A stretch of 64,000 nt of DNA from Flavobacteriales bacterium (GTDB lineage Bacteria > Bacteroidota > Bacteroidia > Flavobacteriales_D > Sanyastnellaceae): the NCBI GenBank assembly GCA_044338665.1, contig JBIIWZ010000010.1:4447-68446 (forward strand). The letters run 5' to 3'. The translations under genes and the position numbers were made by a program. The notes below the pieces were generated by a model that made no database searches, was not told where the DNA came from, and worked only from the letters and a program-made list of their open reading frames with translations. The first letter of the stretch is position 1. Each line of letters begins with the position of its first letter. Positions 29,398-57,265 of the stretch are shown here, piece by piece.

Positions 29398-29450
29398 GAT
29401 CCCGATAGCTATCGGGAGCATAATTCCAATTCGTAATTGGAACTTCGTTG
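29398..29450 (-). repeat. cassette 3-prime repeat, subfamily b (CCCGATAGCTATCGGG hairpin plus CCAATT-N3-AATTGG)
   Basis: tcccgatagctatcgggagcataattccaattcgtaattggaacttcgttg. Its paralog is at 34153-34210. It lies 3-prime of the stop of 29494..30048. Confidence 0.7.
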
Positions 29451-29493
29451 CTCAGAGATGTCATTGCGATTTGTAGTGCTCATTCAAGAAATC

Positions 29494-30048
29494 CTACATC
29501 TGTCCGTCTGGCCGGTTATATACTATTGTCATTTTTTTTTCAAAAGCTGAAGTAGAAATTTCTAATTCCCAAGATTTGTCAATTGTCGGAAGTGCTTTTT
29601 TAGAATGGTCTAAAAACCTAAACCAACCCCGTGTCTCCTCTGTTATCTTAAAGCTCTGGTTGTTGTCACAAAATACGTCTAAGCAAATATTGTCAGTGAC
29701 ATAGTGGTCCTCTTTATATCCATGCATTGATATAATTTCTGTCCACTGAATCGATTGTACACCCTCGTTTGTTTTTATTGAAAAGCCTAAGTCGCTGAAG
29801 GTGAAAATACCGTTATCTGTGTAAATTTCTTTAAAATTCTTTTCGTTTTGATCTTTATAACCTGTGATATTTTGGTCAGAAATCTCAACTCTTCTGATGG
29901 TTGATCTGAAGAATTTTATAATGAAAAAGATTGTTCCGCCACCAAAAAAGATAGTCCCAACCCAACTAAATGCCAAGCCTCTTGAAATACCCCAAGCAGA
30001 TAAACTGGTCATCATAAGTCCAATTAATATGTTTCTTCTTGCTTTCAT
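29494..30048 (-). CDS. hypothetical membrane-anchored protein (two N-terminal TM helices)
   Basis: 184 aa. Hydrophobic N-terminus ILIGLMMTSLSAWG and WVGTIFFGGGTIFFIIKFF. Its start overlaps the stop of the upstream gene by 4 nt. Confidence 0.55.
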   Translation of the reverse strand: MKARRNILIGLMMTSLSAWGISRGLAFSWVGTIFFGGGTIFFIIKFFRSTIRRVEISDQNITGYKDQNEKNFKEIYTDNGIFTFSDLGFSIKTNEGVQSIQWTEIISMHGYKEDHYVTDNICLDVFCDNNQSFKITEETRGWFRFLDHSKKALPTIDKSWELEISTSAFEKKMTIVYNRPDGQM

Positions 30049-30485
30049 TTTCCGTGAGTTATTCTAATAACCTTGCTGTCTCGACCGTCAATAATTATTG
30101 AAAACGTCCCGCCCTTCATACCCGAAGGAAGTGTTCCTTCAATTAACCAATAATTGTCTTTGAAGTAAATTTCGTAAGGTCGTTGATTTATTATGTTTTC
30201 TTTGCCGTAAATACTGAAGAGGATTGGTTCGGCTACATTTATTGCAGTTACACTGTCTTTAATAATTGCAGTATTGTTGTGAATTAAGTTGTGCTTTGAG
30301 CTGTCGACAAGGGAAGATTGAAGTTCCTGCTCTGCTTGAACTTGTGAAGTTGTCGGCTTAAATCCTTTGCCATTGTCACAGGTGTCACTTTCGAAAACAA
30401 CAAAGTCTTGAACATGCTTTCTTTCTGAGTCGTTACAACTAACCAAAAATAATATGATCAATTTAGAGATTGTTCGTCTTATCAT
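30045..30485 (-). CDS. NTF2-fold immunity protein-like lipoprotein
   Basis: Start MIRRTISKLIILFLVSC (lipobox). The C-terminal AINVAEPILFSIYGKENIINQRPYEIYFKDNYWLIEGTLPSGMKGGTFSIIIDGRDSKVIRITHGK matches, from memory, the pattern of the Imm-NTF2-2 family of polymorphic-toxin immunity proteins. Confidence 0.5.
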   Translation of the reverse strand: MIRRTISKLIILFLVSCNDSERKHVQDFVVFESDTCDNGKGFKPTTSQVQAEQELQSSLVDSSKHNLIHNNTAIIKDSVTAINVAEPILFSIYGKENIINQRPYEIYFKDNYWLIEGTLPSGMKGGTFSIIIDGRDSKVIRITHGK

Positions 30486-30522
30486 AACAGCCACTTTTGC
30501 CAAACTGATGCTGGGAGTAGAT

Positions 30523-31365
30523 TTACTCTGCGTTACATCCATATTCTCTGTCTTTTGGCGATTTCAAACAATGTCCACTAAAGAATAAATCTAAAGTTGG
30601 TGGATTATATCTTTCGTGAGTTACTTTCATTAATTTCGGATAATTAGCTAATGCGATTTTTGCTTTTTTCAGAACAATTTCTTCCATTAAATCAGGTGCT
30701 TCCGAATTAAAAATCATTTCAACTTTGTCTATTTTTCCATTTTTTTTGAAAGTAACATTTACTATGCATGAGCTTTCTTCATCAAATTGATTTCTTTCAT
30801 CTATTGTAATTTCTTGCAGTATTAATTTTTTAATGGAGTCGGACAATCTTCTTTCTGCTGGAAATATCTGTTTGTCATTGTACTTAACATATTCTTTTAT
30901 TTCCGTATTTTTAATTTTACCATTTTCAAATTTGTAATAAATTTCTTTCTCATAAATAGACATATAGCCCATATGGACGTATTGAATTAGTTGTCCTTTT
31001 GGTTGTATAATGGTGTGATTAACCCAATTAGCAAAGACGTTTGAAGTTCCAAATTCTATTTTAACATCCAAATCAATAGGGTTTTTACCACAATAATCTG
31101 TTTGTATTCTGACTAAAAACAAACTGTCATTTTGCAACTTCCAAGTTGCGACATATCCTCTCCATAGTGCCGTGCAACTACCTTGCATTTCCTCGCCATT
31201 TATAGTCCGCGTACCTTTTCTATCAAAGTATCCCTCTAACGGATTTGAATTGATCTCAAATGTGTCTTTCGAAATAATTAAGAGGTCGCCAAACTGGGCA
31301 GTCCCCAATACCTCAGTGATTTGCGTTAGGGTAAAAAAAATAAGTATTAAAGTTCTAAGGTTCAT
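30523..31365 (-). CDS. hypothetical secreted protein
   Basis: Trimmed to MNLRTLILIFFTLTQITEVLGTAQ (signal peptide). 280 aa. Confidence 0.55.
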   Translation of the reverse strand: MNLRTLILIFFTLTQITEVLGTAQFGDLLIISKDTFEINSNPLEGYFDRKGTRTINGEEMQGSCTALWRGYVATWKLQNDSLFLVRIQTDYCGKNPIDLDVKIEFGTSNVFANWVNHTIIQPKGQLIQYVHMGYMSIYEKEIYYKFENGKIKNTEIKEYVKYNDKQIFPAERRLSDSIKKLILQEITIDERNQFDEESSCIVNVTFKKNGKIDKVEMIFNSEAPDLMEEIVLKKAKIALANYPKLMKVTHERYNPPTLDLFFSGHCLKSPKDREYGCNAE

Positions 31366-31468
31366 AATGTCTATATCTGTTCTTTTTTGAAAATTACTGC
31401 CAACGGTTTGGCGTTTGGTGAAGAGGCCGATTTCGAAGCACTTCACTGTCAACTAAGCACAAAGCTTT

Positions 31469-31490
31469 AATTAACCACTGAACCGCCACT
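31469..31490 (-). repeat. cassette 3-prime repeat, subfamily a core
   Basis: The minus strand reads AAGTGGCGGTTCAGTGGTTAA. It lies about 30 nt 3-prime of the stop of 31522..32034. Confidence 0.65.
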
Positions 31491-31521
31491 TTTAGGTAGG
31501 TGCTGTTATAGCCAGTTATTC

Positions 31522-55689: not shown

Positions 55690-55713
55690 GAAAACCTTGG
55701 CATAAAAGCACCC

Positions 55714-55776
55714 GTAAGAAATTGGCGGTTCGGTGATTAAGTGATCCCGATAGCAATCGGGAAGCACTCCTTCGCC
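55714..55776 (+). repeat. cassette 3-prime repeat, subfamily a
   Basis: gtaagaaattggcggttcggtgattaagtgatcccgatagcaatcgggaagcactccttcgcc. It lies 25 nt after the stop of 54835..55689. Confidence 0.75.
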
Positions 55777-55823
55777 GAGCTTGAAACAATTGACTCAAAC
55801 TTTAAAAAAACGACAATACAACA

Positions 55824-56375
55824 ATGAGCAAAAAATCACTCGACAGAAAATCAGCACAAAAATTCATCGTTGACAACAGGGCCAACGGGAAAACAGATCA
55901 AGAAATTTACAACGAACTATCTCAACAGTATTACGACAAGAAATCTATAACACTTTTAATTACAGGGACCGTTAAGACAGAGAATAAGAACAAGTATAAA
56001 ATTTACAATAACATTTTACTTGGGCTTTTAGTACTTGCAATTTTGTTACGCATACTGCTAGTGTTTAGTTTGACAATTCAAACAGGACAGCTTTGGACTC
56101 TTTTACTTGTATTCATTGTCCCACTTTTTGCTGCGTACTTTATATATGAAATAGCTCGATACAACGCACCTACTTATCGTTTCTGCGGTATAATGACATT
56201 AGTAGGGTTTATGAGGACAATTGGTCAATCAGAAGGTGGCACAGAAATTTTAATAAACTTGGTGTTTGCAGGTGCAATTGCTGGACTTTCATTTTATCTG
56301 GATAGTAAAATGTTTCCAAACTTTAGCCCAATGAACTTAAAAAAGGACAGCAATGGAGAATATATTTTAAGCTAA
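55824..56375 (+). CDS. hypothetical membrane protein (3-4 TM)
   Basis: Soluble N-terminus followed by hydrophobic helices. Confidence 0.5.
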   Translation: MSKKSLDRKSAQKFIVDNRANGKTDQEIYNELSQQYYDKKSITLLITGTVKTENKNKYKIYNNILLGLLVLAILLRILLVFSLTIQTGQLWTLLLVFIVPLFAAYFIYEIARYNAPTYRFCGIMTLVGFMRTIGQSEGGTEILINLVFAGAIAGLSFYLDSKMFPNFSPMNLKKDSNGEYILS

Positions 56376-56521
56376 CCAATGACAGTAGAAAGAAAAACTG
56401 TTGCTCACAGCGTTCAGGCGTTATAGTCCTGCTGCCGGCGAAACAAAAGACTTAAATCGCCTTTACGTAAAACAATCTGTGCAATTATAAAACAAACAAC
56501 TTACGCATTAATTAGAACACC

Positions 56522-57184
56522 ATGAGGCAATTTAGAAATATTATGATATTATTTGGAACTGTATGGTTTTCAAATTTTGCATACGGACAAGACTCACAAA
56601 GAGACTTCTCTGAGATGATGCAAACTTATTATCTGCATCAAGACCGAGATATTGTTGAGAAAACAATCGAATTTGTAAATAATCCCAATGCAGACTACCT
56701 TAAACTTGAGCCAATACTAACTGGCTTTTTCGGAGCACTTTTTTCTGCTGACACAACGATTAGAAGTGCCTTTATGAAAAATTCAGATAAATTCCAGAAC
56801 ATAGACTTCAAAGAATTATTTATTTTCCTTAACGCAACTAATATTGACTCAATCTACTCAAAGACGCCTATTACTCCAACTTTTAATGATATGAATTGGG
56901 CATCTTACTTTGCAACCGGAAATGTAAAATTTCTCGACAGAATAATATCGAATATTCCTCTTGCTGAAAACAGAGTTGATCTAAACTTATTTCTGACGGG
57001 AATTACAGCTAAATGGTCTTTAAGTTCAAATGCAAGGCAGGACAAACAAGTTAAAGAGCATCTTAGAAATCAGAAAGAAAATAAAAAAGTTATAAAAGAA
57101 ATTCTTAAAAAAGACCCTGAAAAATTTAAACAAGACCTGAGAGACATTGTAATTGAGCAAAGGGCGAAAGGGCTTTGGAATTAA
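56522..57184 (+). CDS. hypothetical secreted protein
   Basis: Signal peptide IMILFGTVWFSNFAYGQ. Confidence 0.55.
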   Translation: MRQFRNIMILFGTVWFSNFAYGQDSQRDFSEMMQTYYLHQDRDIVEKTIEFVNNPNADYLKLEPILTGFFGALFSADTTIRSAFMKNSDKFQNIDFKELFIFLNATNIDSIYSKTPITPTFNDMNWASYFATGNVKFLDRIISNIPLAENRVDLNLFLTGITAKWSLSSNARQDKQVKEHLRNQKENKKVIKEILKKDPEKFKQDLRDIVIEQRAKGLWN

Positions 57185-57197
57185 TGTAACTGCAGCT

Positions 57198-57265
57198 GTA
57201 AGAAATTGGCGGTTCAGTGATTAAATAATCCCAATAGCTATCGAAACGCTCAACTTCGCAAAGCC
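57198..57265 (+). repeat. cassette 3-prime repeat, subfamily a
   Basis: gtaagaaattggcggttcagtgattaaataatcccaatagctatcgaaacgctcaacttcgcaaagcc. It lies 14 nt after the stop of 56522..57184. Confidence 0.75.

Follow-up and report, generated by a model that had tools for sequence, protein, structure and literature searches.

The repeat copies that follow open reading frames in the window, a stretch of 64,000 nucleotides from a Flavobacteriales bacterium, belong to two unrelated families, type A with four copies and type B with two. With a probability of about 0.8, the type A copies are Bacteroidota-wide recombination sites, imperfect palindromes of ~105-141 nt located at the 3' ends of mobile cassettes, and type B is a separate REP/BIME-like repeat. 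The sequences quoted in the original prediction are present in all six copies, but their assignment to a single family is not sustained. Type A has the pattern YAAC...GGCGGTTCAGTGGTTAA...GTTR, and the 26-nt core noticed earlier is its 5' part; with a real length of 105-141 nt, the core copies extend far beyond the spans first listed for them. The sharing of the core is confirmed at 32137-32162 (minus strand, 0 mismatches), 57199-57224 (plus strand, 1 mismatch) and 55715-55740 (plus strand, 2 mismatches), with a chance expectation of 0.00 matches. At 31469-31490 (minus strand), where the core had also been reported, the 26-mer has 5 mismatches but the 17-nt GGCGGTTCAGTGGTTAA is exact. The features are listed below, with bit scores from R1, a covariance model built on 14 sites of 10 genomes, aligned over 141 positions.

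28581-28606, plus strand: distal att repeat, a 26-nt copy of the tRNA-Ser(GGA) 3' end; left boundary of a genomic island
29398-29450, no strand: type B repeat, REP/BIME-like, with CCCGATAGCTATCGGG hairpin, CCAATTCGTAATTGG and GGAACTTCGTTG sub-unit
30045-31365, minus strand: ORFs beyond the second site, encoding an uncharacterised protein of 280 aa (30523-31365) and an Imm-NTF2-2 immunity protein (30045-30542)
31391-31513, minus strand: damaged type A site that lacks 18 nt internally and has a degraded 3' arm but retains TAAC and GTTG; 105.1 bits
31522-32034, minus strand: single-ORF cassette, 170 aa, lipoprotein-like, between the two minus-strand sites
32039-32179, minus strand: intact type A site (attC-like); 155.1 bits, E 7e-41
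32215-32799, minus strand: cassette-type ORF, 194 aa, with a signal-peptide-like N-terminus, directly upstream of the intact site
34107-34210, no strand: type B mosaic of GGAACTTCGTAATTGG, AAAATCGGAGATTTT hairpin, CCCGATAGCTATCGGG hairpin and ATAATTGGAACTACGTTG
54835-57184, plus strand: three ORFs of 284, 183 and 220 aa, with a decayed type A site after the first and third
55698-55814, plus strand: short-form type A fossil; 13.1 bits, E 0.33 (filters off)
57182-57286, plus strand: decayed short-form type A site; 36.4 bits, E 1e-7

The window holds one intact, one damaged and two fossil type A sites, arranged in two outward-facing groups. The intact site consists of a TAAC box, the 5' arm GCGGGTTTAAGAAATTGGCG, the conserved loop GTTCAGTGGTTAAATGAAG..., the 3' arm CGCCAACTTCTTAAACCC, an AAAAC bulge and a GTTA box; 22 of the 24 model pairs form on its top strand and all 24 on its bottom strand, and it folds with a z-score of -3.55 as RNA and, whichever strand is taken, of about -2.5 as DNA. 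The "CCGCTGTTAGCGG hairpin" of this copy, previously equated with the CCCGATAGC hairpin of other copies, is really the TAAC box and the start of the 5' stem arm. In the damaged site just 13-14 of the 24 pairs form. The decayed site at 57182-57286, set against intact 104-nt short forms of other genomes, retains TAAC, carries CCCAATAGCTATCGAA in place of the central hairpin and has its 3' box mutated to AGCTA, while the fossil at 55698-55814, 74% identical to it over 97 nt, has TAAA instead of TAAC, the central hairpin TCCCGATAGCAATCGGGA and AATTG where the 3' box is gone. In both of these short copies the type B hairpin has taken the place of the central hairpin, and both have low scores (36 and 13 bits) along with lost boxes.

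The placement just after a stop codon and in the orientation of the ORF holds for type A, whose 5' box (TAAC; TAAA in the 55.7-kb copy) starts 41, 14, 14 and 3 nt past the stop. Type B is a palindromic hairpin, for which orientation is meaningless. In the 170-aa cassette the ATG lies ~14 nt past the GTTA box, which is too close for a separate promoter; a search of 400 Flavobacteriales genomes gave one distant partial match and none within the genus. The 194-aa ORF has a weak PsbP-like Pfam match under the cut-off, the Imm-NTF2-2 polymorphic-toxin immunity protein matches PF15631 (E 2.9e-24), and the 284-, 183- and 220-aa ORFs have no significant Pfam family. No homologues of the window's own cassettes were found in other arrays, and neither excised circles nor a pair of strains that differ by a single cassette at this locus came to light. 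Elsewhere in the same genome type A copies lie at C6:17590-17730, C6:24093-24231 and C14:28721-28810, and on C6 a NERD and TOTE conflict-system cassette is flanked by two sites.

The scan with a covariance model, suggested together with the original prediction, detects type A in 236 of the 400 genomes scanned from Flavobacteriales, with 76 of the 101 genera represented, and the exact 24-mer is present in at least 119 contigs of Flavobacteriales, Chitinophagales, Sphingobacteriales, Cytophagales, Saprospiraceae, Bacteroidales and Ignavibacteriaceae. The repeat is multi-copy and frequent at contig ends, with solitary copies distant from any recombinase. Sites are commonly laid out as a YAAC box, one unpaired A and a stem arm of ~20 bp, then a conserved loop in which GGTTCAGTGGTTAAAT is joined by one or two small hairpins, and finally the complementary arm, which a 5-nt AAAMC bulge separates from a GTTR box. 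YAAC and GTTR hardly vary, TAAC being present in 125-143 of about 143 sites and CGTTR in 133-139 of about 142, and the outer three positions of each box vary without the RYY / RRY pattern of the RYYYAAC/GTTRRRY consensus. Over 146 sites and 24 stem pairs, 84.3% of cells are paired on the top strand (68.4% when shuffled) and 90.1% on the bottom strand, percentages that are somewhat inflated by the making of the alignment (A3) against the model. Double-change cells number 437 against 119 in shuffles, the covariation score is 0.360 against 0.107 when shuffled and about 0.03 in slid controls, and compensatory changes occur at 20 of the 24 pairs. Type A is thus an imperfect inverted repeat with conserved pairing, as attC sites are. 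Asymmetric features of the stem are one A.C position (G.T on the bottom strand) kept in 137 of 142 sites, a fixed C.C mismatch and the 1 x 5 bulge, and these may act like the extrahelical bases of attC. The long stem was missing from the structure that RNAalifold gave for the top strand. Some sites, for example in G018 and G051, combine 5' and 3' arms of differing sub-types.

In arrays of relatives, 12-20 kb contain 5-11 co-oriented sites, with ORFs tightly abutting them, and in complete genomes the arrays reach ~110 kb (G246) and ~70 kb (G379), each with a recombinase of 345-370 aa immediately upstream and in the same orientation, a layout repeated at 5 further random loci. Full arrays begin with this Xer/IntI-like tyrosine recombinase, followed by an attI-like site and then rows of units, each made up of one or more ORFs and a site. 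The attI-like site consists of two TATAYAC repeats with AGTTR at the end, and its motif TATAWAYWAGTTR lies 70-125 nt past the stop codon of 6 recombinases. Counted by hand among the 400 genomes, the site is present in 71 of the 73 that have the recombinase versus 165 of the 327 that do not (Fisher p = 4e-16). These 165 genomes have sites with no close recombinase. Six or more cassettes are common to different MAGs or families, with homology limits falling exactly at GTTA or GTTG, and in one shared pair the cassette that comes first after a recombinase is matched by one located internally in another family. The homology spans the ORF and the site and ends at GTT, and therefore the moving unit is the cassette rather than the repeat.

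The recombinases of these arrays score 197-208 bits with TIGR02249, for which the cut-off is 265, and the match is split into two stretches. Residues 182-246 of VchIntIA (2A3V) stand opposite just 23 query residues, and XerA/XerC-like chains align unbroken; the array recombinase lacks the IntI-specific insert of roughly 40 residues in the region of the I2 helix. It has an additional N-terminal domain of 75-100 aa. The recombinase would cleave the GTT within the 3' box, the folded bottom strand being its probable substrate, cassettes would be excised by recombination between two sites, and the excised cassettes would be inserted at the attI-like site as in integrons. In classical integrons the IntI insert reads extrahelical bases of attC. 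Because the array recombinase is without this insert, recombination of a folded single strand is proposed here by analogy only. The cognate recombinase is absent from the present assembly, which is 64% complete, in tblastn searches with two array-type recombinases, and the sites of the window are probably immobile unless a recombinase comes in trans. The "neighbouring integrase" named earlier as a possible partner is not cognate; the one tyrosine recombinase nearby is the integrase of the tRNA-Ser island just beyond the window end.

The position of the sites, always just past stop codons and in sense orientation, would also suit a 3'-UTR structure conserved for termination, processing or stability of the transcript, as would the good folding of the intact copy as RNA and the expression of genes in the rAID-1 arrays of Bacteroidales (10.1101/471110). 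Such a role as the main function is improbable. No T-run follows the stem, and a terminator scan gave 4 sites against 3.3 in shuffles, none of them a type A stem or type B hairpin, so that simple intrinsic terminators are not what the repeats are. The best-conserved stem position is an A.C mismatch in the sense RNA (the antisense pairs better), Rfam, which has no attC family, gives 0 matches to the repeats, and neither the homology breaks at GTT nor the linkage to a recombinase is explained. A secondary role in RNA may nevertheless exist alongside recombination.

Spread of type A by transposition, as a selfish non-autonomous MITE/REP-like repeat piling up in variable intergenic DNA, is a still slimmer prospect. 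Its inverted-repeat form of 105-141 nt, its many copies, its occurrence at contig ends and its solitary copies far from recombinases are all compatible with such an element, and the genome does have one such element in type B. Yet the orientation of the sites strictly matches that of the flanking ORFs in arrays of up to about 20 sites, array heads carry a recombinase and an attI-like site, the homology between genomes is that of whole cassettes broken at GTT, and no target-site duplication is visible by eye in the alignments around the sites. Homologous recombination or tandem duplication, with the repeats as mere substrates or leftovers and no dedicated recombinase, has the least to recommend it. 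Exchange inside the conserved loop could account for the mixed arm sub-types, but the breaks cluster at the 4-nt GTTR box rather than over the ~60-nt conserved loop, recombinase and site strongly co-occur, and the attI-like site that appears to receive the cassettes has the GTTR box alone in common with the type A sites.

Type B is a genus-wide REP-like mosaic repeat of intergenic regions with no link to cassettes, and the cassette reading of the two hairpin-only copies, at 29.4 and 34.15 kb, has to be given up, both being this genome-wide repeat. The GC hairpin CCCGATAGCWATCGGG itself was correctly identified, with exact copies at 29401, 34155 and 55746 against 0.01 expected. The layout of 34107-34210 recurs at C1:140454, C5:87285 and C39:5443 and in relatives of the genus, and exact copies number 0-15 per genome, close relatives included, against 0 for a control pattern. 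Of 8 type B sites beyond the window, 5 have convergent and 2 have divergent genes on either side. Like REP/BIME elements, type B has a short GC-rich perfect palindrome, forms mosaics with other sub-repeats and is dispersed between genes; unlike them, its sequence is unrelated to enterobacterial REP and its hairpin also occurs in some type A sites, at their variable centre.

All six copies lie on an island of ~36.6 kb inserted at tRNA-Ser, which close relatives do not have. The repeat at 28581-28606 is a 96% match to C29:69695-69720, inside tRNA-Ser, and a longer second copy of the att repeat lies at 60975-61044. In the relatives G011 and G006 the flanking gene is followed directly by tRNA-Ser and tRNA-Phe, as an empty site. 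The island neighbours of the type A sites are an orphan immunity-type protein and unknown small secreted proteins. Taken alone, the window represents modest biology, a remnant in decay that has no recombinase and lies on an island specific to the strain.

The resemblance of the four core copies to attC and to the repeats of immunity arrays holds more strongly than first supposed, and the statement that the sequences are unrelated to attC was too strong, because type A has attC-like YAAC/GTTR ends, a covarying imperfect stem, co-oriented arrays headed by a recombinase and cassette homology that ends at GTT. IntegronFinder surveys have found the Bacteroidetes to be almost without integrons (PMC9024848). 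The attC sites of sedentary chromosomal integrons, such as the VCR of the Vibrio cholerae superintegron, are likewise imperfect palindromes of ~60-140 nt that end each cassette, with complementary ...AAC / GTT... end boxes, a cassette boundary at GTT and a conserved asymmetry that marks the bottom strand, as that of type A may do. Integrons also share co-oriented arrays of ORFs and sites that run for tens of kb behind an integrase and an attI-type site, cassettes with genes for toxin-antitoxin pairs, for defence and for small proteins of unknown kind, and the occurrence of arrays without an integrase (CALIN); the closest kind is the "inverted" integron, whose intI points the same way as its cassettes. 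The differences are that the partner of type A is without the IntI insert, falls below the TIGR02249 cut-off and has an extra N-terminal domain, that the boxes are YAAC/GTTR, short of the full RYYYAAC/GTTRRRY, that the asymmetry takes the form of a 1 x 5 internal loop with fixed mismatches, and that the central loop stays near-identical throughout entire orders, in contrast to the lineage-specific sequences of classical attC.

By analogy, type A would follow the logic of integrons with a non-canonical integrase and stand close to rAID-1, the recombinase-associated acquired interbacterial defence clusters of Bacteroidales (Ross et al. 2019, 10.1101/471110). The odds lean slightly towards a second class of integron in the Bacteroidota and their neighbours of the FCB group (Fibrobacterota-Chlorobiota-Bacteroidota), with an Xer-like integrase without the I2 helix and with an added N-terminal domain, one near-universal folded site of ~140 nt cut at GTT, insertion at an attI with TATAYAC repeats, a phylum-wide cassette pool and islands as an exit route. 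If so, immunity, defence and toxin-antitoxin cassettes would form a pool shared by the whole phylum, since the site is near-identical across orders, and arrays that are shed onto islands, the tRNA-Ser island here among them, would give cassettes a way out of their platform. Should the system function without the IntI insert, the insert is not a prerequisite for cassette recombination, which bears on the origin of integrons from Xer recombinases.

The rAID-1 clusters of gut Bacteroidales are the sole published analogue found. They are reported only from Bacteroidales, with close recombinase homologues said to be confined to that order, and are defined by a 5' XerD-like recombinase whose identity to BF9343_RS08045 is 44% or more (10.1101/471110). 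The window and its relatives likewise have at least two co-directional low-G+C genes (contig G+C 39.3% versus about 41% for the genome), repetitive intergenic sequences and an orphan immunity gene, here the Imm-NTF2-2 gene that adjoins the sites, and the recombinases and repeats may correspond to those of rAID-1. The host here differs, being a freshwater Flavobacteriales lineage, and the cassettes of its relatives are mostly defence, toxin-antitoxin and unknown genes rather than immunity genes alone. That account, in its accessible part, leaves the repeat structure, the crossover point and an attI-like site undefined. What is added here is a model of the site with its boxes, stem, bulge and strand bias, the crossover point at GTT, the attI-like motif and the co-occurring recombinase family (71/73), so that the mechanism becomes directly testable in cultured hosts.

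The motifs on which the original prediction was built are present in all six stretches. The 26-nt core was located by pattern search at 32137-32162 (-), 57199-57224 (+) and 55715-55740 (+) with 0-2 mismatches, where none is expected by chance, the copy at 31469-31490 (-) has the exact GGCGGTTCAGTGGTTAA, and the CCCGATAGCWATCGGG hairpin has perfect matches at 29401, 34155 and 55746. When the hairpin sites of the whole assembly (1.75 Mb in 41 contigs, ~41% G+C, 64% complete, with the window at C29:4447-68446) were viewed with their flanks, the six copies split into two families, and these genome-wide contexts rule out a single six-copy family. 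The four core copies belong to an attC-like imperfect palindrome of 105-141 nt (type A), for which the predicted association with cassettes was, if anything, understated, while the two hairpin-only copies at 29.4 and 34.15 kb are members of a dispersed repeat (type B). The two families had been joined because a type B-like palindrome sits inside some type A centres. The observation is partly confirmed and its interpretation partly supported. Rfam at gathering thresholds gave 0 matches over the whole window.

Aligned in the direction of transcription, the four core copies are similar over more than 100 nt, with conservation extending from a TAAC upstream of the core as far as CGCCAACTTC and AAAAC-GTTA on the downstream side. 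The stem of the 32.1-kb copy joins GGGTTTAAGAAATTGGCG to CGCCAACTTCTTAAACCC, ~75 nt apart, with a fold z-score of -3.55 for RNA and ~-2.5 for either DNA strand. Among 60 relatives, 10 other genomes contain the 18-mer TGGCGGTTCRGTGRTTAA, some of them from other families, and its flanks there form the same element with arms that are varied yet complementary (CACCTACAAGAA.../...TTCTTGTAGCTG, GGGTTTAAGAA.../...TTCTTAAACCC and CACCTACCCAAAAG.../...CTTCGGGTAGC, for example). A covariance model of 141 positions and 24 pairs (R1), built from 14 sites, scores the window copies as follows.

Type A sites in the window
32039-32179, minus strand, type A site, 155 bits
31391-31513, minus strand, type A site, 105 bits
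57182-57286, plus strand, type A site, 36 bits
55698-55814, plus strand, type A site, 13 bits (E 0.33)

Beyond the window, the same genome has matches at C6:17590-17730, C6:24093-24231 and C14:28721-28810 (contig:positions). Short-form sites exist as intact ~104-nt examples in other genomes and as a well-formed 90-nt one on contig C14. The usual centre, GAAGC-TTTGT-GCTTC, is swapped for a CCCGATAGCTATCGGG-type palindrome in the 55.7-kb, 57.2-kb and C14 copies and in one site of genome G058.

RNAalifold on the top-strand alignment returned a trivial 5-pair helix only; the long stem was specified by hand and then tested for pairing and covariation on 146 sites from 75 loci. Standard pairs occupy 84.3% of cells against 68.4% in shuffles, a percentage to be read with the caveat that the alignment was made to R1. 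Cells changed on both sides number 437 against 119 in shuffles, the covariation score is 0.360 against 0.107 shuffled and 0.02-0.06 with slid partners, and compensatory change is seen in 20 of the 24 stem pairs. The end boxes are near-invariant (T/C-A-A-C on the 5' side, C-G-T-T-A/G on the 3' side), and the unpaired bases are a single A (5') and AAAMC (3'). At one stem position 137 of 142 sites have A.C, read as G.T on the opposite strand; other mismatches are A.C in 50 sites at another position and C.C in 82 at a third. Under the same alignment caveat, pairing reaches 90.1% of cells on the bottom strand and 84.3% on the top, with the same trend in the 14 seed sites. Since the best-conserved stem position is a mismatch in the sense RNA, the pattern argues for a DNA-level structure on what would be the bottom strand, as in attC.

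The distribution of type A is broad. R1 matches 236 of 400 genomes of the order and 76 of 101 genera, and as at most 8 candidates were scored per genome, copy numbers are floors. The exact 24-mer TGGCGGTTCAGTGGTTAAATGAAG is found in at least 119 contigs; among the matches listed are Flavobacteriales, Chitinophagales, Sphingobacteriales, Cytophagales, Saprospiraceae, Bacteroidales, Ignavibacteriaceae and Kapaibacterium, with Flavobacterium degerlachei, Pedobacter hiemivivus, Sphingobacterium lumbrici and Hymenobacter species as cultured carriers. A few matches fall in bins labelled Limnohabitans or Deltaproteobacteria, which could reflect misbinning or genuine transfer. One contig of a relative in the genus has an identical counterpart in a Flavobacteriales MAG from Lake Mendota, placing the host in an uncultured freshwater Flavobacteriales lineage.

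Type A sites in relatives stand in co-oriented rows, with ORFs abutting them within a few bases: 11 sites in 20 kb of G249:C57, 9 in G104:C24, 8 in G308:C3 and 5 in G362:C21. Two complete genomes hold long arrays, each with a tyrosine recombinase gene (370 or 345 aa) directly upstream in the same orientation.

Arrays in complete genomes
G246, 4209510-4319511, minus strand, array of ~110 kb
G379, 1684054-1754152, plus strand, array of ~70 kb

A recombinase 50-67% identical lies upstream of the sites and co-oriented with them in five of the loci fetched for the 24-mer alone. Across the 400 genomes, counted by hand, the site is present in 71 of the 73 with a close homologue of the recombinase (E <= ~1e-98) and in 165 of the remaining 327 (Fisher p = 4e-16). 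In the array recombinases, PF13495 and PF00589 domains are combined with an additional N-terminal region of 75-100 residues. They score 197-208 bits on the integron integrase model TIGR02249, below its 265-bit cut-off, and match it in two stretches. Segment 182-246 of VchIntIA (2A3V) lies opposite just 23 query residues, and XerA/XerC-like chains align end to end, implying that the array recombinases are without the IntI-specific insert.

The neighbouring integrase, proposed for a recombination test, does not hold up as the partner of the window copies. With the array recombinases as tblastn queries, no match was obtained in the window's assembly (64% complete), and the search for a cognate recombinase in that genome gave two PF00589 matches only, the integrase of a tRNA island and a weak one on C6. 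Within the genus, the array-type recombinase occurs in G008 only. G379 (contig C1, e.g. fetched locus L029:1171-2219) has at least 13 near-identical copies, and G058 (C1:1658789-1664354, L028) has 2, of a separate tyrosine recombinase of 300-318 aa that is ~40% identical to the array enzyme. Several copies begin ~120 nt from a type A site; recombinase and site together may form a mobile unit, or the recombinase may belong to an element targeting type A sites. On C6 of the window's genome, the type A pair at 17590-24231 (L025:7591-14232) brackets a two-gene cassette encoding a NERD-domain protein of 991 aa and a TOTE conflict-system protein of 1032 aa (PF22708, PF22707), followed by a Schlafen-type helicase gene; the NERD and TOTE genes are defence cassettes of the type A system.

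Shared cassettes locate the crossover point. G362, of the window's family, and G379, of another family, share a 0.9-kb cassette at 92% identity, which in G379 comes first after the recombinase. The homology begins exactly at GTTGTGCG, a sequence that in G362 forms the 3' box of the site before it and in G379 ends the recombinase-proximal spacer. An all-against-all comparison of the fetched loci revealed more shared cassettes with the homology edge exactly at GTTA (TAAC on the other strand), in the pairs L066/L113, L019/L114, L089/L102, L084/L132 and L045/L084, two of them box-bounded at both ends. A conserved TATAWAYWAGTTR lies 70-125 nt past the stop codon of six array recombinase genes (L026:8050-8327, L027:6097-6230, L045, L077, L096 and L098). 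Ahead of several of these attI-like sites stands another TATAYAC with a flanking repeat of its own, an arrangement resembling the repeated integrase-binding sites of attI. The breakpoints at the GTT box and the attI-like motif show that the mobile unit has the form [TTR...ORF(s)...site...G], and its recombination would proceed via a folded single strand.

The window itself has a minus-strand row of genes and sites.

Minus-strand row, in order of transcription
32215-32799, minus strand, ORF
32179-32039, minus strand, intact type A site
32034-31522, minus strand, ORF
31513-31391, minus strand, damaged type A site
31365-30523, minus strand, ORF
30542-30045, minus strand, Imm-NTF2-2 immunity gene (PF15631, E 2.9e-24)
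30048-29494, minus strand, ORF

The ATG at 32034 stands ~14 nt past the GTTA box, so that the cassette has no room for its own promoter. On the plus strand, a short-form site comes after each of the ORFs 54835-55689 and 56522-57184. In the 55.7-kb copy TAAC is replaced by TAAA and GTTR is missing, and the 57.2-kb copy keeps TAAC and has AGCTA for GTTA; with boxes altered or lost, both are fossils. The ORF at 31522-32034 has no homologue in the genus, essentially no relatives of a window cassette ORF were found when sought as a sign of mobility, and none of the window cassettes is shared with 130 fetched loci. The coincidence with strain-variable breakpoints, proposed as a test, was seen at the level of the island and of the family, not at that of individual window cassettes.

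All six copies lie on an island of ~36.6 kb at the 3' end of tRNA-Ser(GGA), 28581-65249 (C29:33027-69695 on the window's contig). In the relatives G011 and G006 the gene 27133-28545 is directly followed by tRNA-Ser(GGA) and tRNA-Phe, representing the empty site. A tRNA scan of the window found none; here the two tRNAs are at C29:69695-69916, just past the window end and next to a 416-aa integrase, and 28581-28606 repeats 26 nt of the tRNA-Ser 3' end. Longer repeat copies are at 28592-28661 and 60975-61044, the second of which suggests that there are apparently two islands in tandem. The proximal part encodes AbiEii/AbiEi (61131-62757), and the distal part ends with a Fic-domain gene (59355-60842). 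Mid-island, between the two outward-facing groups of sites, 39874-41931 holds a 216-aa ORF without Pfam match (39874-40524) beside a HisKA_3/HATPase histidine kinase and a LuxR-type response regulator; next to arrays, this trio is found again at L020:9519-11607 of G362 and the kinase-regulator pair at L021:7735-9322 of G249. The window contains what is left of an integron-like system, decayed and without its recombinase, and in addition an ordinary dispersed palindrome.

This palindrome, type B, has its hairpin at 29401 and 34155 within a mosaic of GGAACTnCGTTrTT, CCTACTTCGTAATT and a AAAACCTTCGGTTTT hairpin, which recurs on contigs C1, C5, C6, C12, C20 and C39 and in relatives. Counts of its exact 16-mer range over 0-15 per genome within the genus, other families have it too, and the reversed control pattern gives 0. 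Outside the window, five of eight sites lie between convergent genes and two of eight between divergent ones, and the relatives have the repeat beside housekeeping genes, oriented either way. Clustered copies in G008 prompted the idea of a second attC sub-family, which was rejected on these convergent and housekeeping neighbours and the lack of a fixed orientation. Type B is a REP/BIME-like repeat and not a cassette site. The hairpin is without a T-run, despite which it may be a bidirectional transcript-end structure. Two further repeat classes were seen in the window.

Other repeats
2401-2520, AAGGTnCTTCGn array
4542-4661, AAGGTnCTTCGn array
5237-5320, AAGGTnCTTCGn array
14055-14277, AAGGTnCTTCGn array
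16668-16763, AAGGTnCTTCGn array
26803-26874, AAGGTnCTTCGn array
39528-39603, long intergenic repeat D3
41959-42031, long intergenic repeat D5
42781-43057, long intergenic repeat D8
54502-54784, long intergenic repeat I1
33942-34151, long intergenic repeat I4
39289-39498, long intergenic repeat I5

The arrays consist of 12-nt units (34-nt at 14.1 kb) in both orientations, each centred on CTTCG/CGAAG, a centre shared with the type B sub-repeats, and one array is inside the 3' end of an acetyl-CoA synthetase ORF. The long repeats stand upstream of several island operons, and GACGAATGCACTTCGTGCGAATGCTTCGCGAATGTCTTCGAC, in relatives one of the sub-units of the type B mosaic, is found in D3, D8, I1, I4 and I5.

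Our literature search on integron-like or attC-like systems in Bacteroidota yielded Ross et al. 2019 (10.1101/471110) and general integron surveys only. The former describes the recombinase-associated acquired interbacterial defence clusters (rAID-1) of Bacteroidales, which, as far as their description allows comparison, are alike in architecture and content. For Bacteroidetes, IntegronFinder 2.0 reports nothing but In0 elements, integron integrases without cassettes, apart from a single complete integron in Salinibacter ruber (PMC9024848). The type A system shares with classical integrons its logic, site architecture and crossover point. Unlike them, its array recombinase is without the integrase hallmark, its box consensus agrees with that of attC in the inner four bases only, and its loop sequence is conserved across orders, differences that keep it out of the classical integron class. 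The closest known system is nevertheless the integron, particularly sedentary or "inverted" chromosomal integrons, and type A represents a widespread, barely described system of integron-like kind.
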